A program made the translations under genes and the position numbers. Shown here in pieces: positions 264-62,816 of a DNA stretch of 64,000 nt (position 1 is its first letter; each line of letters opens with the position of its first letter). The stretch is from an uncultured Alphaproteobacteria bacterium (GTDB lineage: Bacteria; Pseudomonadota; Alphaproteobacteria; CAVTAV01): assembly GCA_963732795.1 (NCBI GenBank), contig CAVTAV010000001.1, positions 230,927 through 294,926 on the forward strand, given 5' to 3'. The notes below the pieces were generated by a model. That model worked only from the letters and a program-made list of their open reading frames with translations. It was not told where the DNA came from and searched no databases.

Positions 264-1085
264 TTAATTTCCGCCCGAATCGCCGTTTCGGGTCAGCGCC
301 TTGATGACGCCCCGGAGCGTGCGGATGTCCTGCTCCGAAAACTGGCCTTTTTGCAAGAGGTTACGGAGATTCCTCACCATTGCCGGGCGCTTCTCCGGTG
401 GCCTCAGGAATCCGGCTGCATCCAGCTCCGCCTCCAGGTGCTCGAAAAGGCGTACGAGGTCCTCCTTGGGCGCGGGCGGCGGCAGGTCGGGCGAGGGCAG
501 GCGGTCGGAAACCGCGGCGGTGAACCACTCGTAGCCGATGATCAGCACCGCCTGGGCCAGATTCAGCGAGGAAAACTCGGGGCTCGCCGGGATATGGAGG
601 ATCTTGTTCGAGAGCGCCACGTCGTCATTGTCGAGCCCGGCCTTTTCCGGCCCGAACAGGATGCCGCAGCGCTCGCCCCGGCCGATCCTCTCGGCCATTT
701 CCGCCGCCGCTTCCCTGGGCGTCGCGGCGGGCTTGGCCATATGACGCGCCCGCGCCGTCGTCGCGAAAACGAGCGAGAGGTCGGCGACGGCATCCTCGGT
801 CTGGCGCGCGAGCTTCGCCAACTCGAGAATTGCATCGGCCCCCGCCGCCATGGGCACCGCCGCCGGGTTGGGCCAGCCGTCGCGCGGCGCGACGAGCCTC
901 AAGTCGGTCAGCCCGAAATTGCGCATGGCGCGCGCCGTCGCGCCGATATTCTCGCCGAGCTGGGGTTTGACCAGGATGATCGCGGGCGCGGGCCCGTCCG
1001 CCGCACTACTTGCCACGATGCGGCGCCATCCAGGAGAAGAGCTTGCCGCCAAAGGCATAGCCAATGCCGACGAATACCACGGCAA
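264..1085 (-). CDS. SpoU/TrmH-family RNA 2'-O-methyltransferase (TrmJ-like)
   Basis: 273-aa ORF with PAIILVKPQLGENIGATARAMRNFG and ILFGPEKAGL motifs typical of SpoU methyltransferases. An alternative start at 1058 is possible. The 5' end overlaps the nrsF stop. Confidence 0.72.
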   Translation of the reverse strand: MPWYSSALAMPLAASSSPGWRRIVASSAADGPAPAIILVKPQLGENIGATARAMRNFGLTDLRLVAPRDGWPNPAAVPMAAGADAILELAKLARQTEDAVADLSLVFATTARARHMAKPAATPREAAAEMAERIGRGERCGILFGPEKAGLDNDDVALSNKILHIPASPEFSSLNLAQAVLIIGYEWFTAAVSDRLPSPDLPPPAPKEDLVRLFEHLEAELDAAGFLRPPEKRPAMVRNLRNLLQKGQFSEQDIRTLRGVIKALTRNGDSGGN

Positions 1086-1674
1086 GGCCGAGATTCCAGA
1101 ACAGGATCATGACCGTGGCGTCCTCGTCATGGATATGGATCAGCGAATGCGCGGTCGCCGTGATCGCCGCCACCGCGAGGCTTCCGGTAATCATGGCGCC
1201 GGTCGGACGCAACGGCGCGGCATGGCGCAACATGACGAGGAGGGCAATGAAGATCGGCAGGCTGGTGAGCGCCACCACCACGAAGCAATCCGCCGATCCC
1301 CCGAGACTGAACCCGTTCGGCCCGAAGGACACCCAATCGGTCAGGCACTGATAGCCCAGCGTCGAGAGCCAAAGAACGAGAGCGGGCAACGGCAGCGCTG
1401 CCCAGGCCCGCGAACGGTCCGGCTGGCTCAGCATGAAGCTCGCCAACGCCGCCAGCACGGCCGTCAGCACCGCGCCGGCCAGATTGGCGTCGAACTGCAT
1501 CTGATGAAACCGCGCGGCGAGGTCCGCCCGGAAGCCCTCGACCAGCGCCGCCAGCACCAGCACGCCGACCCCGATCGCCAGCCAGGAGGCCGCGCGCAGC
1601 AGCGGCGGCCGCAACGGCTTCACCGGCGCCGCTTCCGCCGCAAGCTGGTCTATAAGGTCTGGCGTCGTGGTCAC
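1006..1674 (-). CDS. nrsF: DUF1109-family membrane protein, putative anti-sigma-F factor NrsF
   Basis: 222-aa polytopic membrane ORF with six hydrophobic segments. Its start overlaps the stop of the upstream ECF sigma gene (ATGA overlap), the typical sigF-nrsF arrangement. Confidence 0.7.
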   Translation of the reverse strand: MTTTPDLIDQLAAEAAPVKPLRPPLLRAASWLAIGVGVLVLAALVEGFRADLAARFHQMQFDANLAGAVLTAVLAALASFMLSQPDRSRAWAALPLPALVLWLSTLGYQCLTDWVSFGPNGFSLGGSADCFVVVALTSLPIFIALLVMLRHAAPLRPTGAMITGSLAVAAITATAHSLIHIHDEDATVMILFWNLGLAVVFVGIGYAFGGKLFSWMAPHRGK

Positions 1675-2240
1675 GGCTCGGAGCTCCTGGCGCTCAGAAT
1701 CTTCCGCAAATTGATCAAGGCCCGATGGGTCGCCACCTTGAGGGCGGTGACCGACGTGCCGGTCGTCTCGGAAGCCTCTTTTAGCGACATCTCGTTCAGC
1801 TTCAACATCTGGATCGCCTGGCGCTGACCCGCCGGCAGGCTTTCGATCGCCGCATGCAGGTCGCGCCGGTCCAGAACATCCTCACCCCTATTCGCTTGGG
1901 GCGCGGCAAAGGTTTCCTCATGGGCGGCGGCAAGCGCCTCATATGTCCGGGCCCGCCCTGTCTTGCGCAACCGATCGACGATCCGGCGATGGGCGATCGC
2001 CACCAGCCAAGGGCCGAAGGGCCGCGTCGGATCATAGGTCCGGCGCACCGCATGGATGGTCAGCAGGATATCCTGGACCGTATCCTCGACCTCACTCGGA
2101 TCGCGCAGCTTTCCGGCCGCCAGCGAGCGCAGATAGGGCGCGGCCTCCTGCAGCAATTGCCGATAGGCCGTCCCGTCGCCCGATTGGGCGCGGGCCATGA
2201 GGTCGGACCAGTCGGACCTTATCGGTGTGTCGCCGGACAT
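1671..2240 (-). CDS. sigF: ECF RNA polymerase sigma factor (sigma-70 family, SigF-like)
   Basis: 189-aa ORF with a sigma-70 region 2 (DTVQDILLTIHAVRRTYDPTRPFGPWLVAIAHRRIVDRLR) and a region 4 HTH (QRQAIQMLKLNEMSLKEASETTGTSVTALKVATHRALINLRK). It is co-transcribed with nrsF. Confidence 0.82.
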   Translation of the reverse strand: MSGDTPIRSDWSDLMARAQSGDGTAYRQLLQEAAPYLRSLAAGKLRDPSEVEDTVQDILLTIHAVRRTYDPTRPFGPWLVAIAHRRIVDRLRKTGRARTYEALAAAHEETFAAPQANRGEDVLDRRDLHAAIESLPAGQRQAIQMLKLNEMSLKEASETTGTSVTALKVATHRALINLRKILSARSSEP

Positions 2241-2329
2241 AAGTTCTCTTACGACGGCCCCGGAACCGGGTCAAATGCGGCCGCACACAAACTTGTGACC
2301 GGGATTGCAGACAAAATTTTCGGGCCGGC

Positions 2330-2355
2330 GTAACCCGCGGCGCCCGCCCCGCGAA
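2330..2355 (+). promoter_or_regulatory. ECF sigma (SigF-type) promoter GTAACC-N16-CGAA upstream of the first DUF2282 precursor
   Basis: GTAACC at 2330-2335, an exact 16-nt spacer, then CGAA at 2352-2355. It lies 45 nt upstream of the ATG at 2401, and a GGAGG RBS sits at 2386-2390. Confidence 0.6.
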
Positions 2356-2400
2356 CCTCCCCCTGTAAATCGAAACCCAAACCCTCGAGGAGGTTCCGTC

Positions 2401-2700
2401 ATGAATCGCTTACTCGCAGCCACCGCTCTCACCGCCGCCCTTGGCCTCGCCGGGGCGTACACCGCCGTCCAGGCCGCCGAGGGCGACATGCCCCAGATCG
2501 TCAAGGACAACATGATGCGCGCCAAGGCCCAGCACCTGGAGAAGTGCTACGGCATCAACGCGGCCGCCAAGAACGACTGCGCCGAGGGCGCCCACTCCTG
2601 CGCCGGCCAGGCGACCATGCCGCGCGATCCCAAGTCCTTCGTGCTTCTGCCCATGGGCGACTGCGCGAAGATCGCGGGCGGCTCGACGACGGCGGCTTGA
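2401..2700 (+). CDS. bufA: DUF2282-family secreted Cys4 precursor peptide (bufferin/GigP-like)
   Basis: 99-aa protein. It has a Sec-type signal peptide (MNRLLAATALTAALGLAGAYTAVQAA) followed by EKCYGINAAAKNDCAEGAHSCAGQ...MGDCAKIAGGS with four Cys. Confidence 0.8.
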   Translation: MNRLLAATALTAALGLAGAYTAVQAAEGDMPQIVKDNMMRAKAQHLEKCYGINAAAKNDCAEGAHSCAGQATMPRDPKSFVLLPMGDCAKIAGGSTTAA

Positions 2701-2736
2701 TTGGGCCTAAGCCGACCGGTACCGGGCGGCCGGGTC

Positions 2737-2762
2737 GTAACCTTTTCAAGTGCACGGCCGAA
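2737..2762 (+). promoter_or_regulatory. Second ECF (SigF-type) promoter GTAACC-N16-CGAA upstream of the second DUF2282 precursor
   Basis: GTAACC at 2737-2742, a 16-nt spacer, then CGAA at 2759-2762. It is 62 nt upstream of the ATG at 2825, with an AAGGAAGG RBS. Confidence 0.6.
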
Positions 2763-2824
2763 CTATCGAACGGTGACCAAAGGTGACCAGCACTTCCCAC
2801 CAACACCAAGGAAGGTTTCTAAGG

Positions 2825-3187
2825 ATGAAAAGCAATCGAAGCATCGCCACGTCCGTCCTCGTTTCGGCAGTGGGCCTCTCCCTCGTGGCAGGTCTGACGC
2901 CGACGTCTGCGGCGGAGAACGCGACCATGCAGCAGAAGCTCGAGCAGATGCTCAAGATGCATCCGGGTGCCAGCAAGGAGACGATCGAAGCAAACATGAA
3001 GCGGGTCGCGAAGAACCATCTCGCCCGCTGCTACGGCATCAACGCGGTCGCCAAAAACGACTGCGCCTCGGGCGCCCATTCCTGCTCGGGGCAGTCGACC
3101 ATGGCGCGGGACCCCTCAGCCTTCGTGCTGTTGCCCGCTGGCGATTGCGCGAAGATCGCGGGCGGGTCAACCAAAGGTCCGATGTAA
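2825..3187 (+). CDS. bufA: DUF2282-family secreted Cys4 precursor peptide, second paralogue
   Basis: 120-aa protein. Signal peptide MKSNRSIATSVLVSAVGLSLVAGLTPTSAAE, an extra ~35-aa linker, then ARCYGINAVAKNDCASGAHSCSGQ...AGDCAKIAGGS with the same Cys4 pattern. Confidence 0.78.
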   Translation: MKSNRSIATSVLVSAVGLSLVAGLTPTSAAENATMQQKLEQMLKMHPGASKETIEANMKRVAKNHLARCYGINAVAKNDCASGAHSCSGQSTMARDPSAFVLLPAGDCAKIAGGSTKGPM

Positions 3188-3198
3188 GTCGCCGATTG

Positions 3199-4089
3199 AT
3201 GTCTCCGATGATGACCAGCCCAAAGCCATCGTCGGGCCCGGTCCCCGCTTCGGCGGGGATCGGGCTGCGCTTCCCGCACCATCGGGCCGTGGCCGAGACC
3301 GCTCCGGCCATCGCCTGGCTCGAGGTTCACACTGAGAACTATGTGGGCGGCGGGCCTTCGGTCAGCACGCTGGAGGCGATCCGGCGGGACTATCCGATCT
3401 CGTGCCATGGCGTGGGGCTGTCGCTTGGAAGCGCCGAGGGGATCGAAAAGCGGCATCTTGCGCGCATCGGTGACGTAATCGAGCGTTTCGAGCCCGGCCT
3501 CGTCTCCGAGCATCTGTCCTGGAGCGTCTCCGGCGGGACCTATCTCGCAGATCTCCTGCCGTTGCCGATGACCGAGGAGGCGCTCGATATCGTCTGCCGC
3601 AATGTCGAGACGGTTCAAGACCGGCTCAAGCGCCGCATTCTGGTCGAGAACCCGTCGAGCTATCTCCGTTATCGCCATTCGACCATCCCCGAGGCCGAGT
3701 TCATCGCCGCCGTCGCCGGACGCACCGGTTGCGGCATCCTCTGCGACGTCAACAATATTTATGTCAGCGCGCACAACCACGGTTGGGACGCTCGGGCCTA
3801 TCTCGCGGGCCTGCCGGCTGAGGCGGTCGGCGAAATCCATCTCGCCGGTCATTCGGCGCGCCGGTTGGAGAACGGCCGCACGATCCTGATCGACGACCAC
3901 GGCTCGCGGGTGATCCCGGAGGTTTGGGCACTCTATGAGGCGGCTCTGCAACGCTTCGGCCCGGTCCCGAGCCTGATCGAATGGGACACCAACGTCCCGG
4001 CGCTCGACGTGCTTCTGGACGAAGCCGCCGGGGCGGCCGCCCGGCTCACCGCCTTTGGCAAGGAGAACGGCAATGCCGACGCTGCTTGA
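3199..4089 (+). CDS. bufB: DUF692-family protein (MNIO / MbnB-TglH-like multinuclear iron oxidase; BufB/GigA-like)
   Basis: ~296-aa ORF (the listed 462-aa ORF is over-extended upstream). The region IGLRFPHH...AWLEVHTENY...VSEHLSW...HLAGH is characteristic of DUF692 TIM-barrel enzymes. Confidence 0.78.
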   Translation: MSPMMTSPKPSSGPVPASAGIGLRFPHHRAVAETAPAIAWLEVHTENYVGGGPSVSTLEAIRRDYPISCHGVGLSLGSAEGIEKRHLARIGDVIERFEPGLVSEHLSWSVSGGTYLADLLPLPMTEEALDIVCRNVETVQDRLKRRILVENPSSYLRYRHSTIPEAEFIAAVAGRTGCGILCDVNNIYVSAHNHGWDARAYLAGLPAEAVGEIHLAGHSARRLENGRTILIDDHGSRVIPEVWALYEAALQRFGPVPSLIEWDTNVPALDVLLDEAAGAAARLTAFGKENGNADAA

Positions 4090-4858
4090 GATCGAACGCG
4101 CCGTCCGCGCCGCCTTGCTCGATCCCGGCAACGACGATGCTCTCCGGCACATCGTCGCCGACGGCATCGCGCCGGAGAATCGCCTCGCGATCTATCGCAA
4201 CACGTATGTTTCGGGCGCGGTCAAAGCCCTTGAGCTCAATTTCCCGGCGGTTCGGAATCTGGTCGGCAACGAATTCTTCGAAGGCGCGGCGCGGATCTAT
4301 ATCGATGCAAATCCGCCCGAGAGCGCGTGTCTCGATGATTACGGCGCGGGTTTCCCGGACTTTCTGGCCGATTTCCCGCCCGCGCAATCGCTCGCCTATC
4401 TCGGCGACGTCGCGCGTCTGGAGTGGATGGTGTCGCGCGTCCTGCATGCTGCCGACACGCCGTCCCTCGACGTCGCCCGCCTGTCCGCGGTTCCGCCGGA
4501 GGATCACGGCCGCATCCGCTTCGCGCCGAGTCCCTCGGCCGGCCTCATTCGCGCGGATTGCCCCGCTGATGAGATCTGGCGCGCGGTCCTCGACGGCGAT
4601 GACGATGCGATGGCCGCGGTCGATCCCGGCGCGGGGCCGATCTGGCTCCTGGTCCGGCGCGGGACTATGGGCATCGACGTCGCACGGCTCGACGAAGCCG
4701 ACGCCCGCTTTCTTCTGCTGCTGATCGACGGCACGCCCCTCGACGACGCGCTGGCCATGGCGGGCGACATCGACGGCCCCGCCGTCCTCGCCCGGTTTCT
4801 CACCGGCGGCGTCTTTGCCGGATTCGACCTTCAGAAAGAACAGGGAGCTTCCCGATGA
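4073..4858 (+). CDS. bufC: DUF2063-family protein (MbnC/TglI-like partner of DUF692; BufC/GigB-like)
   Basis: ~261-aa ORF overlapping the bufB 3' end. The N-terminus MPTLLEIERAVRAALLDPGNDDALRHIVADGIAPENRLAIYRNTY is typical of DUF2063. Confidence 0.72.
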   Translation: MPTLLEIERAVRAALLDPGNDDALRHIVADGIAPENRLAIYRNTYVSGAVKALELNFPAVRNLVGNEFFEGAARIYIDANPPESACLDDYGAGFPDFLADFPPAQSLAYLGDVARLEWMVSRVLHAADTPSLDVARLSAVPPEDHGRIRFAPSPSAGLIRADCPADEIWRAVLDGDDDAMAAVDPGAGPIWLLVRRGTMGIDVARLDEADARFLLLLIDGTPLDDALAMAGDIDGPAVLARFLTGGVFAGFDLQKEQGASR

Positions 4859-5325
4859 CCACCACCGAAACCGCGACGGCCCGTCCGTCCTCCATGCTCA
4901 CGCTCTGCCGCCGCATCCTCACATGGCTCGACGCGATCCCGTATACGCTCCTGGCGATCCCCTTTCGGTTCGCCGTCGCGACGGTGTTCTGGAATTCGGC
5001 TCAGACCCACCTCGCAAATTGGGACACGACGCTCTACCTGTTCGAGAACGACTACGCCCTGCCGTTCCTACCGCCCCATCTCGCGGCCCATATGGCCGTC
5101 GCGATCGAGGTGTCGACGCCGATCCTTTTGGTCCTCGGCCTCCTCACCCGTCCGGCTGCGGCGGTGCTGCTCGGCATGACCCTGGTGATCGAAATCTTCG
5201 TCTACCCCATGGCCTGGCCGACCCATATCCAATGGGCCGCGATGGTGCTCGTGCTGCTGGCGCGAGGGCCGGGGAAGCTGTCGGTGGATTGGCTGGTGAG
5301 GCGGAAGGTGTTAGGCGAAGGCTGA
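4855..5325 (+). CDS. bufD: DoxX-family membrane protein (BufD/GigT-like)
   Basis: 156-aa ORF with four TM segments. ATGA overlap with bufC. Confidence 0.72.
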   Translation: MTTTETATARPSSMLTLCRRILTWLDAIPYTLLAIPFRFAVATVFWNSAQTHLANWDTTLYLFENDYALPFLPPHLAAHMAVAIEVSTPILLVLGLLTRPAAAVLLGMTLVIEIFVYPMAWPTHIQWAAMVLVLLARGPGKLSVDWLVRRKVLGEG

Positions 5326-5440: not shown

Positions 5441-7066
5441 TCAGCCCGTCCCCGCCGGCGCGCCGTCGCGATAGAGCTTGTAGGTCAGGCTGTCGTTCAG
5501 GGCCTGGAACGAGGCGTCCACGATGTTCGGTGAGACGCCGACCGTGAACCAGCGGCGGCCTTCGCCATCCGCGCTTTCGATCATGACGCGGGTGACGGCG
5601 TTGGTGCCGTCGCCGGTGCCCTGGTTGAGGATGCGGACCTTGTAATCGACGAGGCGCAGATCCTCGATATAGGGCGAGTATTTGCCAAGGTCCTTGCGGA
5701 GCGCGACGTCGAGCGCGTTGACCGGGCCGTTGCCTTCGCCGACCGACATGAATTCCTCGCCGTCGACTGTCAGCTTCACTGTCGCCTCGGACATGGTCAC
5801 GAGCTCGCCCTTGGCGTTGTAGCGGCGCTCCACCAGCGTGCGGAAGCTGTCGACGTTGAAGTAGGTCGGCACCTCGCCGAGCGTGCGCCGCGCGAGAAGC
5901 TCGAAGCTCGCCGCCGCGCCGTCATAGGAATAGCCGTCGAACTCGCGCTCCTTGACGATTTCGAGGAGGCGCTTGAGCTTCGGGTTCTTCGGATCGACCT
6001 CGACGCCGATCTCGTTGAGCCGCGCGACGATATTGGCGACGCCGGACTGGTCCGAGACCAGGATCTGCCGTTCGTTGCCGACCGTCTCCGGCGGAATGTG
6101 CTCGTAGGTCTTCGGATCCTTCAGGACCGCCGAGACATGCAGCCCGCCCTTATGCGCGAAGGCCGAGGCGCCGACATAGGCGGCGTTGCGGGCCGGGCGC
6201 GCGGTTCAAGGTTTCGTCCAACTGGCGCGACAGGCCGGTCAGCTTCTTCAAAGCCTCCTCGGAGATGCCGGTATCGACGAGATCGCGATAGGTCGGCTTC
6301 AGGACCAGCGATCGGGATCAGCGAGATCAGATTCGCATTGCCGCAGCGCTCGCCGAGGCCGTTGATCGTGCCCTGGATCTGCCGCGCGCCGGCGCGGACG
6401 GCGGCGAGGCTGTTGGCGACGGCGTTCTCGGTGTCGTTATGGGCATGGATGCCGAGCTTAGTGTCCGGGATGGTCTCGGCGACCTTGGCGACGATGCGCT
6501 CGACCTCGTCGGGCAGGGTCCCGCCATTCGTGTCGCACAGCACCAGCCACCGCGCGCCCGCGTCATGGGCCGCCTTGAGGCAGTCCATCGCGTAGCCCGG
6601 ATTGGCCTTGTAGCCGTCGAAGAAGTGCTCGGCGTCGAACAATGGCTCGCGTTCGCGCTTGGCGACCTCGGCGACGCTATCGCGGATCAGCTCCAGATTT
6701 TCGTCGAGCGAAATCTCGAGCGCGACCTTGACATGGAAATCCCAGGTCTTGCCGACGAGGCAGATCGCCTTGGCATCGGCATCGAACAGCGCCGCGAGGC
6801 CCGGATCGTTCTCGACGCTACGGCCCGGCCGGCGGGTCATGCCGAAGGCGGTGAAGGTTGCGGTGCCCAAGCGTCGGCGCCTTGGCGAAGAAAGCCGTAT
6901 CGGTCGGGTTCGCCCCCGGCCAGCCGCCTTCGACATAGGCGACGCCGATCTTGTCGAGCGCCGTCGCCAGGAGCCGCTTGTCTTCGACGCTGAAATCGAC
7001 GCCCTGGGTCTGCGCGCCGTCGCGGAGCGTCGTGTCGTAGAGATAGAGGCGTTCGCGCTTGCTCAT
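5441..7066 (-). pseudogene. cimA: Citramalate synthase / 2-isopropylmalate synthase family (LeuA-CimA), interrupted by several indels
   Basis: N-terminal fragment [30 protein letters not shown] (start 7066). Middle fragment 6121-6936 with the HAHNDTENAVANSLAAVRAGARQIQGTINGLGERCGNA catalytic region. C-terminal regulatory-domain fragment 5441-5872. At least three frame changes. Confidence 0.7.
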
Positions 7067-8461
7067 CCTGCGCGCCTCCATGTGGTTCCGGCGGGGCCGT
7101 CCTCCAGGATCACGCCATTGGCTTTGAGCTCGTCGCGGATGCGGTCGGACTTCGGCGAAATCGCGCTGCTTTCTGGCGGCGTTCCTTGCGGCGATCAGGT
7201 CTTCGATCTTGGACTCCGGAAGCCCGTCCCCGCCGTCGGCGCCCTTGAGCCAGGCCTCCGGCGCTTGCCGCAGCACGCCCAGGATCTTGCCACCCGCCAG
7301 CATCATCGCCTTCAATTCCGCCTTCTCGATCTCGCTCTCCGCCTTGTTCGCATCGCGCGCCAGATCGTGGAGCGCGGCGAAGGCTTCCGGCGTGTTGAGG
7401 TCGTCCTCGATGGCGCGGATGACGTGGCTTTCGCCGACATCCTTGGCCGGCTCGACATCGGCGAGCCTCTGCATCGCGAGGTAGAGCCGGTCGAGCGAGC
7501 GCTTGGCCTGCTCCAAGCCGTCCTCGGACCAGTTCAACGGCGCGCGGTAATGGGCCGACAGCATGAGATAGCGCGCGGCCTCCGCCGGCCAATTTTTCAG
7601 GACCTCATGCACCTTGGTGATATTGCCGAGGCTCTTCGACATCTTCTCGTCCTGGACCGTCAGAAACCCGTTATGCAGCCAGTAATTCGCCATCGGCTTG
7701 CCGTGATGGGCGCATTTGCTCTGGGCGATCTCGTTCTCGTGGTGGGGGAAGATCAGGTCCACGCCGCCGCCATGGATGTCGAAGGTCTCGCCGAGATGGG
7801 TCTCGCTCATGGCCGAGCATTCGATATGCCAGCCCGGCCGGCCCTTGCCCCAGGGGCTGTCCCAGCCGGGATGGTCGCCGGCCGGCTTCCACAGCACGAA
7901 ATCGGCCGGGTCCTTCTTGTAGGGCGCGACCTCGACCCGCGCGCCCGCGATCATGTCGTCGCGGTTGCGGCCCGAGAACGCGCCGTAATCCGGCATGGAG
8001 GTCACGTCGAACAGCACGTGCCCTTCGGCGACTGATAGGCATGGCCCGACGTCGATGAGCTCTCCCGATCATCGCGATCATCTGCGGGATATGCTCGGTC
8101 GCGCGCGGCACGACCGTCGGCGGCAGGGCGCCGAGCGCGGCCATGTCCTCGGCAGTAGATCGAGGCGAAACGCTCGGTGATCGCACTCCATCGGCTCGCC
8201 GGTCTTCTCATGGGCGGCGATGATCTTGTCGTCGACGTCGGTGACGTTGGCGACGATAGGTGACGTCGTAGCCCTTGGCCACGGAAATAGCGGTGCAGCA
8301 CGTCGAACACGATCACCGGCCGCGCGTTGCCGATATGGGCGTAGTCGTAGACCGTCGGCCCGCAGACATACATGCCCACATGGCCGGGCGTGATCGGCTC
8401 GAAAGCCGCGCTTCTCGCGGCGCGCGGTATCGTAAAGGACCAGGGCCACCGGCCGCTCCAT
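7063..8461 (-). pseudogene. cysS: Cysteine--tRNA ligase, multiple frameshifts (likely sequence error)
   Basis: Fragments [12 protein letters not shown]..., [32 protein letters not shown] (HIGH motif) and ...[18 protein letters not shown]...KMSKSLGN (KMSKS motif) lie in three frames. The stop overlaps the cimA start. Confidence 0.75.
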
Positions 8462-28318: not shown

Positions 28319-29392
28319 ATGGTGTCGCAAAGTAACCGCGTTGCAGTGACAGACGAGCATCACGCAGCCGAGGCAGCGAACGACGATATCGCCAAAGACC
28401 CGGTTTTCAAGAAGCGGTCGTTCCTGAAGCTGCCGGCCGAGATCGATTTCAAGCGCCTGATCGACGAGTACAACAGCATCCCCGAGGATGCCTGGGGCAC
28501 GAGCTTCTGGGACGCCCATTGCTCGATCGACGTGCTGACGCTCCGCGCCGGCACCAACGGCGACGACACGGATTACATCACCGACAGTGTCAGCGACAAC
28601 CCGATCCTGAAGGACTATCCCTATATGTCCTGGCTTCTGAGCGAGGACAGCCCGTTCGGCCGAACGCTCTACGCCGTGATGTTCAGGATGCGCCCGAACG
28701 GCATCACCCGCATTCACCCCGACAATCACGAGGCCTGGGAAGCCACCCAGCGCATTCATTTTCCGCTCGTCACCAATCCCGACGCCTACCTGATGGCGGA
28801 AGGCCGCGCCAAGCACATTCCGATCGGCGAGGTCTGGACCTTCAACAATCAGGAGCTCCATTCGGTCGTCAATGGCGACACGCTCAGGTGTCATCTGGTG
28901 ATCGACGTTCGCCCCAACCCCAAGCTCCGCGAGTTGATGAAGAACGCGGTCTACGATCCCGGCGAGAAGCGTCCGGATCTCTGGGAGTTGACCGGCGGCC
29001 CGTCGTCCCTCGGCCGCACGCTGCCCTTGATCTACGGCTGGGCGCGTCCGCTTTCGGCCAAGGACAAGCGGTTGAACGGCCTGCCGCGCGACGGTTTCGG
29101 CTCGCTGATCGAAGCGCTCGGCAAGCGAGCCAAGATCCTTCGGTCGCCGCTCAAGGTCGGCGACATCATGACCCATGTGAACGGCGTCGACACCAATCCG
29201 ACGGCTCGCACCGCCTTCGATCATATCGAGATGAACCATCTTCCCGGCGAGACGATCACGGTCGGCATCATCCGTGATGGCAAGCCGATGGACGTCAAGA
29301 TCAAGCTCAAGCCGGCGAACTATTTCGGCGTCTTCGGCCGTCTGCTCGGTGAGCAGAAGCCGGACGATTTCCAGTCAGCCTATACCGACTGA
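28319..29392 (+). CDS. Aspartyl/asparaginyl beta-hydroxylase-family (cupin) protein with a C-terminal PDZ domain
   Basis: 357-aa intact ORF. The central region ...RIHPDNHEAW...HFPLVTNPDAYLMAEGRAKHIPIGEVWTFNNQELHSVVNGDTLRCHLVIDV resembles Asp beta-hydroxylase/LpxO-like 2OG oxygenases. The C-terminal ~80 aa (...VGDIMTHVNGVD...ETITVGIIRDGKPMDVKIKL) is PDZ-like. Confidence 0.6.
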   Translation: MVSQSNRVAVTDEHHAAEAANDDIAKDPVFKKRSFLKLPAEIDFKRLIDEYNSIPEDAWGTSFWDAHCSIDVLTLRAGTNGDDTDYITDSVSDNPILKDYPYMSWLLSEDSPFGRTLYAVMFRMRPNGITRIHPDNHEAWEATQRIHFPLVTNPDAYLMAEGRAKHIPIGEVWTFNNQELHSVVNGDTLRCHLVIDVRPNPKLRELMKNAVYDPGEKRPDLWELTGGPSSLGRTLPLIYGWARPLSAKDKRLNGLPRDGFGSLIEALGKRAKILRSPLKVGDIMTHVNGVDTNPTARTAFDHIEMNHLPGETITVGIIRDGKPMDVKIKLKPANYFGVFGRLLGEQKPDDFQSAYTD

Positions 29393-37202: not shown

Positions 37203-37682
37203 GTGTCGGACATGGCAACGGCAACATTCGCAGCGGGATGTTTCTGGGGCGTCGAGGCGACGTTCGGTCAGATCGAGGGCGTGACCCGCACCGAGGTCGG
37301 GTATACCGGCGGCTCGACGGAAAACCCGAGCTATAAGGACGTATGTACCGACCGCACCGGCCATGCCGAGGCCGTGCAGGTCGAATACGATCCCGACAAA
37401 GTCTCCTACGACCGGCTCCTGGACGTGTTCTGGGCCAATCACGATCCCACCACCCTGAACCGCCAGGGCCCGGATGTCGGCTCGCAATATCGCTCGGCGA
37501 TCTTCTTCCATTCGCCAGACCAGGAGGCGGAGGCCAAGGCGTCGAAGGAAGCGCTCGACAAATCCGGCCGGTTTCGCCGCCCGATCGTCACCCAGATCGT
37601 GCCGGCCGTCACCTTCTATCCGGCCGAGGAATATCACCAGAAATACCTCGAGAAGCGCGGCCTCGCGACCTGCCATATCTGA
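37203..37682 (+). CDS. msrA: Peptide-methionine (S)-S-oxide reductase
   Basis: [12 protein letters not shown] active-site motif. Intact 159-aa ORF. Confidence 0.88.
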
Positions 37683-57018: not shown

Positions 57019-59679
57019 ATGTTGAACGATAAACCCGCCGCGATCCTCCGTACGGACTATCGCCCGCCGGCATTCTCCATCGATACCGTCGATCTCGAAT
57101 TCGAGCTTGAGCCGGCCGCGACCCGGGTCCGGGCGAAGCTCGCCGTCAGGCGCGCCGCCCATGCGGACGCCCTCGGCAAGCCCTTGCATCTCGACGGCGA
57201 GGGGCTGGAGCTTCAGCGCGTGCGCGATCGACGGGCGGCTGCTGAACCCGAACGAATTCCAGGTCGATTCCGAGGGACTGACGATCCCGAGCGTGCCCGA
57301 CGCCTTCGAACTCGAAACCGACGTCGTGATCCGGCCGAAGGACAATACCGAGCTTTCGGGCCTTTATGTCTCGAACGGCATGTTCTGCACCCAGTGCGAG
57401 GCCGAGGGCTTCCGCCGCATCACCTATTTCATCGACCGGCCGGACGTCATGTCGCGCTACACGGGTCCGGATGACCGCCGACGCGGCGGCATTTCCCGGT
57501 GCTCCTGTCGAACGGCAACCATGTCGACGGCGGGACGCTCGCCGATGGCCGGCACTGGGCCGAATGGCGCGATCCGTTCCCCAAGCCCTGCTATCTCTTC
57601 GCGCTCGTTGCGGGCGACCTCAACTATCTCGAGGACGAGTTCAGGACCATGTCCGGCCGCGACGTGACCTTGCGGATCTATGCCCGCGCCGACGACGTGA
57701 ACAAATGCGGCCACGCCATGCAGTCCCTCAAGAAGGCGATGGCCTGGGACGAGAAGGTCTTCGGCCTCGAATACGATCTCGACGTGTTCAACATCGTCGC
57801 GGTCGGCGACTTCAACATGGGCGCGATGGAGAACAAGAGCCTCAACATCTTCAATACGAGCTACATCCTCGCCCGGCCGGAGACCGCGACCGACACCAAT
57901 TTCGCCAATGTCGAAGGCGTGGTCGCCCACGAATATTTCCATAACTGGACCGGCGACCGCGTGACCTGCCGCGACTGGTTCCAGCTCAGCCTCAAGGAAG
58001 GCCTGACGGTCTTCCGCGACCAGGAATTCTCCTCCGACATGGGCTCGCGGGCGGCCAAGCGCATCGCCGATGTCCGGGGGCTGCGTTCATCGCAGTTCGC
58101 CGAGGATTCGAGCCCGATGGCGCATCCCGTGCGGCCGGAATCCTATATCGAAATCAATAACTTCTACACGGCGACCGTCTACAACAAAGGCGCCGAGGTC
58201 ATCCGCATGATGCATCGGCTCTTGGGAAAAGACGGCTTCCGCAAGGGCATGGATCTCTATTTCAAGCGCCATGACGGCCAGGCGGTCACCTGCGACGATT
58301 TCGTCGCCGCGATGGAAGATGCGAACGGCGCCGATCTCGGCCAGTTCCGCCTGTGGTATTCCCAGGCCGGCACGCCGGAGCTCGACGTCACGGGCCATTA
58401 CGATGAAGCCGCACGGACCTTCGACCTGACCGTCGCCCAGCATGTCCCCGACACGCCGGGCCAGACCAACAAGAAGCCGATGCATATCCCGCTGGCGGTC
58501 GGCCTTCTGGACGAGACCGGCGACGAGATGGCGCTGAAGCTCGATGGCGTCGAGGGCACGGCGACGACCCAGGTGCTCGACGTCCGCGAAGCCAAGCAAA
58601 CCTTCCGGTTCCGCGATGTGCCGCACAAGCCGGTGCCGTCGCTGCTCCGGGATTTCTCCGCCCCTGTACGGCTCAAGGCCGATCTGGACGACGACGCGCT
58701 CATCTTTCTCATGGGACATGACGGCGACCCGTTTAACCGCTGGGAGGCGGGTCAGCAGCTCGGCGTGCGGCTCATGCTGCAGATGGTCGAGCGTTATCGG
58801 CGGCAGGAGAAGCTCTCGCTGGAACAGGGCTATGTCGAGGCGCTGCGCAAGACCCTGACCGATCCGTCGCTCGACAAGGCCTTCATCGCCGACGTTCTGT
58901 CGCTGCCGTCCGAGCCCTATCTCGGCCAGAACATGGAGCAGATCGACGTCGAGGCGATCCACGAGGTGCGGTCCTTCGTCCGGGGCCAAATCGCCCACGC
59001 GCTCAAATCCGAGTTCGAGGCGGCCTATCGCGACAACGCGATCAAGGGGCCCTATGCCTTCGAGCCCAAATCGGTCGGCCGGCGCAGTCTGAAGAACAGC
59101 GCCTTGTCCTACCTCGCTTTCGGCGATCCGGACGCCACGGGCGAAGGCAGCCCGGTGGACCTTTGCCTCAAGCAGTTCCGCGGCGCCGACAATATGACAG
59201 ACGAGCTCGGAGCCCTGAGCGTGCTGTCCCATATCGACCGGCCGGAGCGGGCCGAGGCGATGGCCGAGTTCTACGACAAATGGCGCAAGGACGCCCTCGC
59301 GGTCGACAAATGGTTCGCGCTCCAGGCCATGTCCGAGCGGAAGGGCGCGATCGAGGACGTGAAGCAGCTCCTCAGCCACCCAGCATATGACCGGCGCAAT
59401 CCGAACAAGGTTCGGGCGTTGGTCGGCGCGTTCTGCTTCAACAATCCCACCGGATTCCATGACGCGAGCGGGGCCGGCTACGAGTTCCTGGCCGACCGGG
59501 TGCTGGAGCTCGATCCGATGAATCCGCAGGTTTCGGCGCGGCTGGCGGGCGCGCTCGGCCGCTGGCGGAAATACGACCCGGCCCGCCAGACGCTGATGAA
59601 AGCGGCCTTGGAGCGCATCGTGGCGAGCCCGAACCTCTCGAAGGATGTCTACGAAATCGTCTCGAAAAGTCTCGTTTAA
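57019..59679 (+). pseudogene. pepN: Aminopeptidase N (M1 family), frameshifts in the N-terminal region
   Basis: MLNDKPAAILRTDYRPPAFSIDTVDLEFEL.... [10 protein letters not shown] (HExxH) with ...[15 protein letters not shown] (the Glu in LTVFRDQEF is the third Zn ligand). The C-terminal 720 aa are intact (57499-59679). Confidence 0.82.
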
Positions 59680-61673: not shown

Positions 61674-62816
61674 ATGGCTGGCATTCGCAAACATCCAATC
61701 CTCACCCTGGCGATTTTGTTCGCGATCGGGCTCGCCGGCGCGTTCGGCTATCGCTTCTACTCCGACCAGAATCAGAAGATCGGCTTCAGGTCGGGCCCGA
61801 CGCCGGTGGTGGCGGCCGCCGCGCAGAATGTCGAATTCGTCGATCGGATCAGCTCCGTCGGCACCGCCGAGGCCAACGAGTTGGTCACGTTGACCGCAAA
61901 GGTTACCGAGACCGTTCGCAATGTCCGGTTCAGTGACGGCGACTATGTCGAGAAGGGCGACATTCTGGTCGAGATGACCAACGCCCAGGAAAACGCGATG
62001 CTTTCCCAGGCCGAAGGCAATCTTCAGCAGGCCCAGCGGAAATTCGAGCGCACCACGGACCTGGTCAAGCGCGGCATCGCCCCGGCCTCGCAGCTGGACA
62101 CCGACACTGCCGGCCTCAAATCCGCGAAGGCGCAGGTCGATTCGGTTCTTGCCCAGTTGAGCGACCGGGTCATCCGCGCGCCGTTCTCCGGCGTCCTGGG
62201 TTTCCGCGGCGTCAGCCAGGGCACCCTGCTCACGCCGACGACGCCGATCACCACCCTCGACGATATCAGCGTCATCAAGCTCGATTTCGCCGTGCCCGAG
62301 CTCAATCTCGCTGTGCTTCACCCCGGCCTCGAGATCCAGGCGACGAGCTCCGCCTATCCGGACAAGGTGTTCAAGGGCATCGTGCGCACCGTCAATTCGC
62401 GCGTCGATCCGGCGACCCGGGCGGTCACCGTCCGCGCCGAGGTCAAGAACCCGAACCGCCTGCTCCGGCCCGGCATGCTGCTCAATGTCAGCCTGATCCA
62501 GAGCAAGGGCATGGTTCTGGCCATTCCCGAAGGCGCGCTGGTTCCGGTCCAGGACAAGCAGTTTGTCTATGTGCTCGACGCCGACAACACCGTTCACCGC
62601 AAGGAAGTCGAGATCGGCCGCCGCCGGCCCGGCATGGTCGAGGTTGTCGACGGCCTGAAGGCGGGCGACAAGGTCATCTCCCAGGGGACGCTGGACATCC
62701 GCGACGGCGACAAGGTGGAAGTCGTCTCCCAGGAGAAGCCTCTTGTCGGCGACACCGGGACGCCGGGCGAACAGGAAACACCGACGCCGTCACCGGCGGC
62801 TCAGCTCGGCGGGTAG
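61674..62816 (+). CDS. Efflux RND transporter periplasmic adaptor subunit (membrane fusion protein)
   Basis: N-terminal TM, coiled-coil, then ...VIRAPFSGVLGFRGVSQGTLL... and the ...VLAIPEGALVPVQDKQFVYVL... beta-barrel/MP domain patterns. Confidence 0.8.
   Translation: MAGIRKHPILTLAILFAIGLAGAFGYRFYSDQNQKIGFRSGPTPVVAAAAQNVEFVDRISSVGTAEANELVTLTAKVTETVRNVRFSDGDYVEKGDILVEMTNAQENAMLSQAEGNLQQAQRKFERTTDLVKRGIAPASQLDTDTAGLKSAKAQVDSVLAQLSDRVIRAPFSGVLGFRGVSQGTLLTPTTPITTLDDISVIKLDFAVPELNLAVLHPGLEIQATSSAYPDKVFKGIVRTVNSRVDPATRAVTVRAEVKNPNRLLRPGMLLNVSLIQSKGMVLAIPEGALVPVQDKQFVYVLDADNTVHRKEVEIGRRRPGMVEVVDGLKAGDKVISQGTLDIRDGDKVEVVSQEKPLVGDTGTPGEQETPTPSPAAQLGG

Follow-up and report, generated by a model that had tools for sequence, protein, structure and literature searches.

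The stretch of DNA analysed here (hereafter the window) comprises 64,000 nucleotides (nt) from an uncultured alphaproteobacterium (assembly GCA_963732795.1, contig CAVTAV010000001.1, forward-strand positions 230,927 to 294,926). Near its beginning lies a set of genes for the production of bufferins, together with a gene pair that encodes SigF, a sigma factor of the extracytoplasmic function (ECF) type, and the corresponding anti-sigma factor NrsF (Table 1). The elements considered in this report are two putative SigF-dependent promoters, here termed P1 and P2, each of which stands in front of one of two neighbouring bufferin precursor genes, bufA_a and bufA_b. The sigF–nrsF pair is divergent from P1 and from the run of two DUF2282 genes, an MNIO gene, a DUF2063 gene and a DoxX gene on the other strand; the GTG start codon of nrsF overlaps the stop codon of sigF and is preceded, 9 nt upstream, by an AGGAG ribosome-binding site of its own. 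The translations of both precursor genes contain four cysteines and an N-terminal hydrophobic, signal-like segment, and BufA_b carries in addition an 18-residue insertion after the signal peptide. By all of the sequence-level features that define such clusters, the locus is a buf1ABCD-type bufferin cluster with SigF–NrsF regulators; the bufferin (DUF2282) family has been described (PMC11626156), as has the buf cluster of Caulobacter (PMC11626156; PMC3511200).

Table 1. Genes and predicted promoter elements of the sigF–buf region (positions are those of the window)
Feature	Position	Strand	Description and support
nrsF	1006..1674	-	DUF1109 anti-sigma factor, downstream of sigF; Pfam PF06532 NrsF, E = 7.8e-30
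sigF	1671..2240	-	ECF16-type ECF sigma factor; Pfam Sigma70_r2, Sigma70_r4_2, Sigma70_ECF; 31% identity to S. meliloti RpoE7 (ECF16)
Candidate third SigF-type promoter	1891..1916	-	GAAACCTTTGCCGCGCCCCAAGCGAA; sigF nt 324-349, in the sigma2-sigma4 linker; 1 mismatch from the core
P1	2330..2355	+	Predicted ECF16/SigF-type promoter core before bufA_a; exact match, GTAACCCGCGGCGCCCGCCCCGCGAA; -35 GTAACC, 16-nt spacer, -10 CGAA
bufA_a	2401..2700	+	DUF2282 bufferin precursor, 99 aa, canonical type; Pfam PF10048, E = 1.1e-20
P2	2737..2762	+	Predicted ECF16/SigF-type promoter in the 124-bp gap before bufA_b (and bufBCD); exact match, GTAACCTTTTCAAGTGCACGGCCGAA
bufA_b	2825..3187	+	DUF2282 bufferin precursor, 120 aa, long subtype; Pfam PF10048, E = 9.6e-19
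bufB	3199..4089	+	MNIO-family bufferin maturase; NCBIfam NF050167 MNIO_BufB, 374 bits (cut-off 310); Pfam PF05114, E = 8.5e-104
bufC	4073..4858	+	DUF2063 partner protein; Pfam PF09836, E = 6.4e-23
bufD	4855..5325	+	DoxX-family membrane protein; Pfam PF07681, E = 2.1e-14

A pattern search for GTAACC-N16-CGAA was run over the whole window on both strands, with 100 dinucleotide-preserving shuffles as the null. It returned exactly two matches, P1 and P2, both on the forward strand, which are the two sites with 16-nt spacers that a first-pass annotation of the locus had picked out. The shuffles give a mean chance expectation of 0.02 matches per window, and two or more matches were seen in none of the 100. 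Widening the spacer to N14-18 added no further match in the window. When one mismatch was allowed, four further matches appeared, one of them inside sigF (considered below) and three in unrelated coding regions. The latter were rejected as members of the regulon and treated as chance: the match at 57314 lies inside a pepN-like gene, that at 28332 inside an Asp/Arg-hydroxylase-like gene and that at 61881 antisense within an HlyD-family gene. The absence of the motif in front of msrA (37213-37682; PF01625), which had also been claimed, was borne out, as the 400 nt upstream of this gene hold no match with two or fewer mismatches at spacers of N15-17.

The two sites do stand one before each precursor gene, as had been proposed, and both genes match DUF2282 (PF10048). 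The 3' end of the CGAA element is found 46 nt before the bufA_a ATG for P1, which lies inside the 160-bp sigF–bufA intergenic region, and 63 nt before the bufA_b ATG for P2, which lies in the gap between the precursor genes (2701-2824, with the length of 124 bp previously given). Transcription is predicted to start at approximately 2361-2365 from P1 and 2768-2770 from P2. Both sites recur at an identical 407-nt spacing on L081, an independent metagenome contig of a closely related strain, which is 98.66% identical to the window over 4,391 nt and aligns to it with no gaps; the spacer lengths of P1 and P2 are therefore not artefacts of indels in the assembly. In a comparison of polymorphism with this one near-identical strain, zero substitutions were found across 1765-3806.

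The motif itself is well established. GTAACC-N16-CGAA has been shown to be the σF-binding sequence in Caulobacter, where it is defined by the core only (Kohler et al. 2012, PMC3511200), and the first-pass annotation had named it correctly. In the orthologous CC3254–CC3257 operon the transcription start has been mapped by rapid amplification of 5' cDNA ends (5'RACE), and lacZ fusions show that the -35 element and sigF are both required (PMC3511200). The ECF16 group to which these sigma factors belong (classification of Staron et al. 2009) has the consensus tGTAACc-N16-CGAA (PMC3420878, PMC8315932). Brucella BcrS recognizes TGTAAC/GCGAA (PMC8315932), the transcript controlled by the Bradyrhizobium ECF16 factor begins 6 bp after the -10 element (PMC3420878), and the orthologous DUF2282-DUF692-DUF2063 genes of S. 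meliloti are under positive control by RpoE7 (PMC6180224). The members of the group that have been studied include B. japonicum EcfF–OsrA, Brucella BcrS–AbcS, S. meliloti RpoE7–EcfR7, Azospira SigF–NrsF and C. metallidurans RpoQ–RsqA with gigPABT; they share with the locus in the window a DUF1109 six-helix anti-sigma factor, the tGTAACc-N16-CGAA promoter and a small regulon, and both RpoE7 and RpoQ adjoin the same DUF2282-MNIO-DUF2063-DoxX operon.

The closest described parallel is the SigF–NrsF system of Caulobacter crescentus/vibrioides with its CC3254–CC3257 operon (buf1ABCD, CCNA_03363-03366), which has the same GTAACC-N16-CGAA motif and the same divergent arrangement of sigF–nrsF and the DUF2282-DUF692-DUF2063-DoxX genes (PMC3511200, PMC11626156, PMC8224329). 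By this likeness, the expected inducers at the present locus would be copper, cadmium and chromate, and the expected product class would be the bufferins, which are copper-binding ribosomally synthesized and post-translationally modified peptides (PMC3511200, PMC11626156, PMC8224329). The two organisms differ in the number of precursors: Caulobacter has one per operon, with a second precursor in the separate buf2 operon, whereas at the locus in the window two precursors of different subtypes stand in tandem, each behind a promoter-like site of its own.

Conservation of the promoter was assessed in 160 loci, 80 from genomes (found with BufB as the query) and 80 from metagenomes (found with BufA_b). 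Among the 80 genome loci, 53, from Alpha-, Beta- and Gammaproteobacteria, have the exact motif at 75-100 nt before bufA, and nearly all of the remaining genome loci with enough upstream sequence have either an N15 spacer or a GTAACT variant. Over 159 loci (L081 being left out of this count), 86 exact sites precede bufA, and the motif co-occurs with an adjacent sigF–nrsF pair in most of the loci examined. Alignment of the orthologous sites gives an extended consensus, GTAACCTTT-N13-CGAAyyT. P2 fits this consensus (GTAACCTTT...CGAAC). When only the non-core positions were scored, against the orthologous sites and against random window positions, P2 fell at the 37th percentile of the orthologous sites on six extended positions, and its non-core score was equalled by only 0.02-0.09% of random positions. 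It also aligns with the promoters of the relatives that have a BufA_b-type precursor (L001, L082 and L013), and the alignment takes in a GGTGACC that follows the -10 element. Directly after P2 there is a direct repeat, GGTGACCA-AA-GGTGACCA, at 2772-2779 and 2782-2789, which would belong to the 5' leader of bufA_b and of which one GGTGACC copy is conserved in L001 and L013; bufA leaders generally have a conserved A-C/G-G-G-T/C-C approximately 10-16 nt after the -10 element.

Tandem bufA genes were found in three distinct lineages among the 160 loci, namely this organism (the window and L081), a member of the Stellaceae (L051) and a member of the Binatia (L053). The 80 metagenome loci of the BufA_b scan show no tandem layout except on this organism's own contig, and P1 has no positional orthologue in a tandem context outside this organism in the 160 loci. 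The Stellaceae locus has three bufA genes, at 5237, 5618 and 8120, the third of them downstream of bufD, and one motif precedes each: an exact core with N15, a GTAACT variant with N15 and an exact core with N16.

We regard it as highly probable that P1 and P2 are target promoters of the adjacent ECF16-type SigF, each placed before one of the two bufferin precursor genes, because two exact matches stand against 0.02 expected, the motif is a known one, the gene context is appropriate and the sites are conserved at orthologous loci. Those features of an ECF16 target promoter that can be judged from sequence (motif, spacing, orientation and distance, a cognate sigF–nrsF pair and conservation) were all found. 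The motif with its statistics, the identities of the genes, the conservation and the lack of a terminator are observed, and the dependence on SigF, the start sites, the read-through and the evolutionary order that are proposed here are inferred. By analogy with the models for Caulobacter, Bradyrhizobium and Brucella, copper, oxidative or other metal stress would cause the membrane protein NrsF to release SigF; SigF–RNA polymerase would then bind GTAACC (-35) and CGAA (-10), 16 nt apart, and start transcription approximately 6-8 nt downstream. From P1, a transcript of bufA_a would arise that most likely continues into bufA_b-bufB-bufC-bufD, and P2 would provide a second start for bufA_b and the maturation genes.

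Four sets of observations weigh against this assignment. The first concerns P1, whose flanks are atypical. CGC stands where the -35 element is otherwise followed by a strongly conserved TTT (of 53 orthologous sites, 44-50 have T at these positions), and on the six extended positions the site falls at the 2nd percentile of the orthologous sites, with a background-like score that 28% of random window positions equal; P1 may accordingly be a weak promoter. The second comes from the Binatia locus, where the bufA genes are in tandem and no motif is found before the second gene. In the place of a second promoter, the gap at 1655-1720 of that locus contains a long GC-rich inverted repeat (GCGATCGCGCCGGTCCGAGCG...CGCTCGGACCGGTGCGATCGC), which may act as an attenuator or terminator and thereby set the stoichiometry of precursor to enzyme. 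One promoter per precursor is thus a recurrent but not a universal arrangement. The third is that the particular tandem arrangement of the window occurs, among the 160 loci, in this organism alone (the window and L081). The fourth is that, in C. metallidurans, the dependence of gig expression on RpoQ is without experimental demonstration (PMC10304878, PMC13492112).

The flanks of P1, and likewise its very GC-rich spacer, would also be expected if only P2 worked, with P1 decayed, very weak or non-functional and bufA_a either poorly expressed or transcribed from some other promoter. We consider this unlikely. All ten core bases of P1 are exact, the site has the right distance and orientation relative to an intact bufA_a with a good ribosome-binding site, and the chance of finding such a site in the 160-bp intergenic region, scaled from the expectation for the window, is approximately 2.5e-5. 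Non-TTT flanks like those of P1 do exist in natural bufA promoters, few as they are (L002, L003, L024, L060 and the third site of L051), and in Caulobacter the site is defined by its core alone (PMC3511200). It is still less probable that P1 and P2 are served, through cross-talk, by another ECF sigma factor from elsewhere in the genome and not by the adjacent SigF. The AAC core is common to the -35 elements of ECF factors, some loci have two sigF-like genes (for example L040) and the view of ECF16 paralogues taken here is that afforded by the window; however, the motif travels with an adjacent sigF–nrsF pair in most loci examined, and the neighbouring ECF16 factor is the one that is needed in Caulobacter, S. 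meliloti, Brucella and Bradyrhizobium (PMC3511200, PMC6180224, PMC8315932, PMC3420878). That both matches are due to chance and have no promoter function is barely credible, for even with only ten specified bases and a GC-rich genome the expectation is 0.02 per window, two matches arose in 0 of 100 shuffles, and both sites are correctly oriented just upstream of genes in front of which the motif stands at more than 100 other loci.

With P1 and P2 taken as SigF target promoters, the relationship of the two precursors bears on how the arrangement arose. BufA_a and BufA_b are 50% identical to one another. BufA_a shares 60-72% identity with the BufA that occurs singly at most orthologous loci, and BufA_b, at 76% identity over the full length, is the orthologue of the single BufA in the closest relative (L001) and is orthologous also to that of L013. 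A recent tandem duplication of promoter and bufA was ruled out, as the proteins are only 50% identical and of different subtypes and the spacers of the two promoters show no relationship. P2 probably represents the operon's ancestral promoter, because it aligns with the one promoter present in the closest relatives that have a single bufA, and P1 probably came with, or evolved for, an extra canonical precursor gene, bufA_a, that would have been inserted between sigF and P2. A consensus scan of the gap between bufA_a and bufA_b found no terminator on the forward strand, and the region 2690-2830 folds no better than its shuffles (z = 0.39). Transcripts from P1 probably read through into bufA_b-bufBCD, because no terminator separates the two precursor genes. 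The suggestion of the first-pass annotation that bufA_b and the modification genes may be transcribed independently of bufA_a is upheld in part: a separate start is predicted, at a site that fits the family consensus and lines up with the only promoter of the relatives, but there is no terminator between the genes and both promoters would answer to the same sigma factor. Fully separate transcription units for bufA_a and bufA_b are unsupported, there being neither a terminator nor a stable structure in the gap.

The first-pass annotation had also found no such motif in front of sigF itself. This holds for the upstream region, where no match with two or fewer mismatches at N15-17 occurs on the minus strand (2231-2700), and sigF in the window lacks the own-type promoter upstream of the sigma gene by which autoregulation would be recognized. 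What had been overlooked is a conserved site, one mismatch from the core, inside the gene. This candidate, GAAACCTTT-N13-CGAA, includes the TTT extension, is on the coding strand of sigF and lies approximately 210 nt upstream of the nrsF start, with a predicted transcription start at approximately 1883-1885. ECF sigma factors tolerate T/A variation at this position of the -35 element, as seen in TGAAAC for B. subtilis σW and TGTAAC for σX. The element is found at the same codons in essentially all of the approximately 90 bufA-linked sigF orthologues, which are 44-100% identical (L001-L160 and L162), and an exact GTAACC occupies the internal position in the co-oriented loci L039, L070 and L100 and on a B. 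glumae plasmid. Upstream of the approximately 90 sigF orthologues, the best match has at least two mismatches.

The basis of this conservation was examined by codon usage in an unbiased, protein-guided alignment of 81 unique orthologous segments. The glutamate codon is GAA in 76 of 76 cases (background 0.46), the threonine codon ACC in 76 of 81 (background 0.42), the phenylalanine codon TTT in 65 of 70 (background 0.20) and the alanine codon GCG in 63 of 63 (background 0.45). The synonymous positions of GAA-ACC-TTT...GCG-AAy are accordingly fixed against local codon usage, with P values of 1e-22 to 1e-39 per codon in a test that ignores phylogeny and uses sequences that are not independent. 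Where the amino acid does change, the nucleotides of the element are retained: a Phe/Leu switch at the third codon keeps TT and an Ala/Thr switch at the eighth codon keeps CG. The five spacer codons vary freely. A cause at the level of the protein is ruled out by the codon usage and, on this evidence, the constraint is one on nucleotides and not on protein.

Internal and upstream sites appear, from the loci compared, to be mutually exclusive. An exact or near-exact motif immediately before the start codon, with no internal one, was found for four distant sigF-like genes (34-37% identity), S. meliloti rpoE7 and a Nitrobacter plasmid copy. Caulobacter sigF also belongs to this upstream class: a SigF-type promoter stands upstream of it, with a mapped start 2 nt ahead of the initiation codon, and the table of starts lists upstream starts only (PMC8224329 Table S6), whereas sigF in the window has no upstream promoter and has the conserved SigF-like site inside the gene. 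EcfF, BcrS, RpoE7, Azospira SigF and Caulobacter SigF all differ from sigF in the window in having a mapped promoter upstream of the sigma gene. In C. metallidurans, rpoQ has an RpoQ-dependent start 24 bp upstream, where no ECF16 motif was found (PMC13492112). At two loci, L085 (2253 on the minus and 2309 on the plus strand) and L109 (3686 on the minus and 3735 on the plus strand), back-to-back exact motifs face both ways upstream of a distant, Caulobacter-like sigF, with a further SigF-dependent gene between sigF and the promoter of bufA.

The probabilities are evenly balanced as to whether the sigF subfamily that stands beside bufferin operons in Alpha-, Beta- and Gammaproteobacteria has swapped an upstream autoregulatory promoter for a SigF-type promoter embedded in the linker region, from which nrsF would be transcribed without sigF. 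Were the internal site a promoter of this kind, SigF-dependent transcription of nrsF alone would constitute negative feedback with no positive autoregulation; we would put at about one chance in two a circuit that has negative feedback only and in which each bufferin precursor gene has a SigF promoter of its own. A comparable arrangement is reportedly known from E. coli, where Rhodius and colleagues are said to have described, in 2006, a σE-dependent rseA promoter within rpoE. In both cases the sigma factor would drive its own anti-sigma factor from a promoter within the sigma gene, which gives negative feedback; E. coli rpoE reportedly differs in having an upstream σE-dependent promoter as well, whereas the internal site would be the only SigF-type site of the sigF–nrsF pair in the window. 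No description of the sigF-internal site was found in a limited search of the ECF16 literature.

Some further features of the window and of related loci deserve mention. The atlas of transcription starts for C. metallidurans (2026, PMC13492112 Table 4) gives the ECF16 consensus as -35 AATTCG and -10 GGTTAC, which is the reverse complement of CGAATT...GTAACC, and the same study reports no ECF16 motif upstream of gig. At three Cupriavidus loci (L006, L016 and L068, from strains other than CH34), an exact GTAACC-N16-CGAA is present approximately 80 nt upstream of the gigP/bufA orthologue. Within the window, housekeeping genes appear to be frameshifted at approximately 5441-8461 on the minus strand and 57250-57500 on the plus strand. 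CysS motifs are scattered over three frames at 7671-8461, a LeuA/CimA-like gene that continues from the cysS frame is split into 5441-5872 and 6121-6936, and PepN-like sequence extends in a different frame upstream of the open reading frame at 57499. These apparent frameshifts are probably indel errors of the assembly or pseudogenes; the sigF–buf region is intact and colinear with L081. The comparison with L081 also revealed that 45 of the 59 substitutions fall in the covered part of nrsF (window 1293-1674, L081 1-382), which is 11.8% divergent, every other feature being at most 1.1% divergent. This could be a recombination tract in the gene for the sensor anti-sigma factor, or a chimeric contig end.

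The finding of P1 and P2 is accurate and its reading in the first-pass annotation is supported; it is an ordinary one, a fresh example of a regulon that has already been worked out in Caulobacter, and its value lies mainly in annotation, in that the locus can be assigned to the SigF/ECF16 copper- and oxidative-stress regulon. For the organism, it predicts that two different bufferin precursors would be co-induced and would share one set of maturation enzymes, for which separate promoters offer a simple means to set the ratio of precursor to enzyme. For the family, the consensus GTAACCTTT-N13-CGAAyyT, which is drawn from 86 natural sites, could improve the prediction of regulons, including that of Cupriavidus, for which the 2026 study reported no ECF16 motifs in front of gig. 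What may be new to a specialist is the intragenic site in sigF, which, if functional, would be a clean and broadly conserved case of a promoter that lies within coding sequence and rewires the feedback between a sigma factor and its anti-sigma factor.

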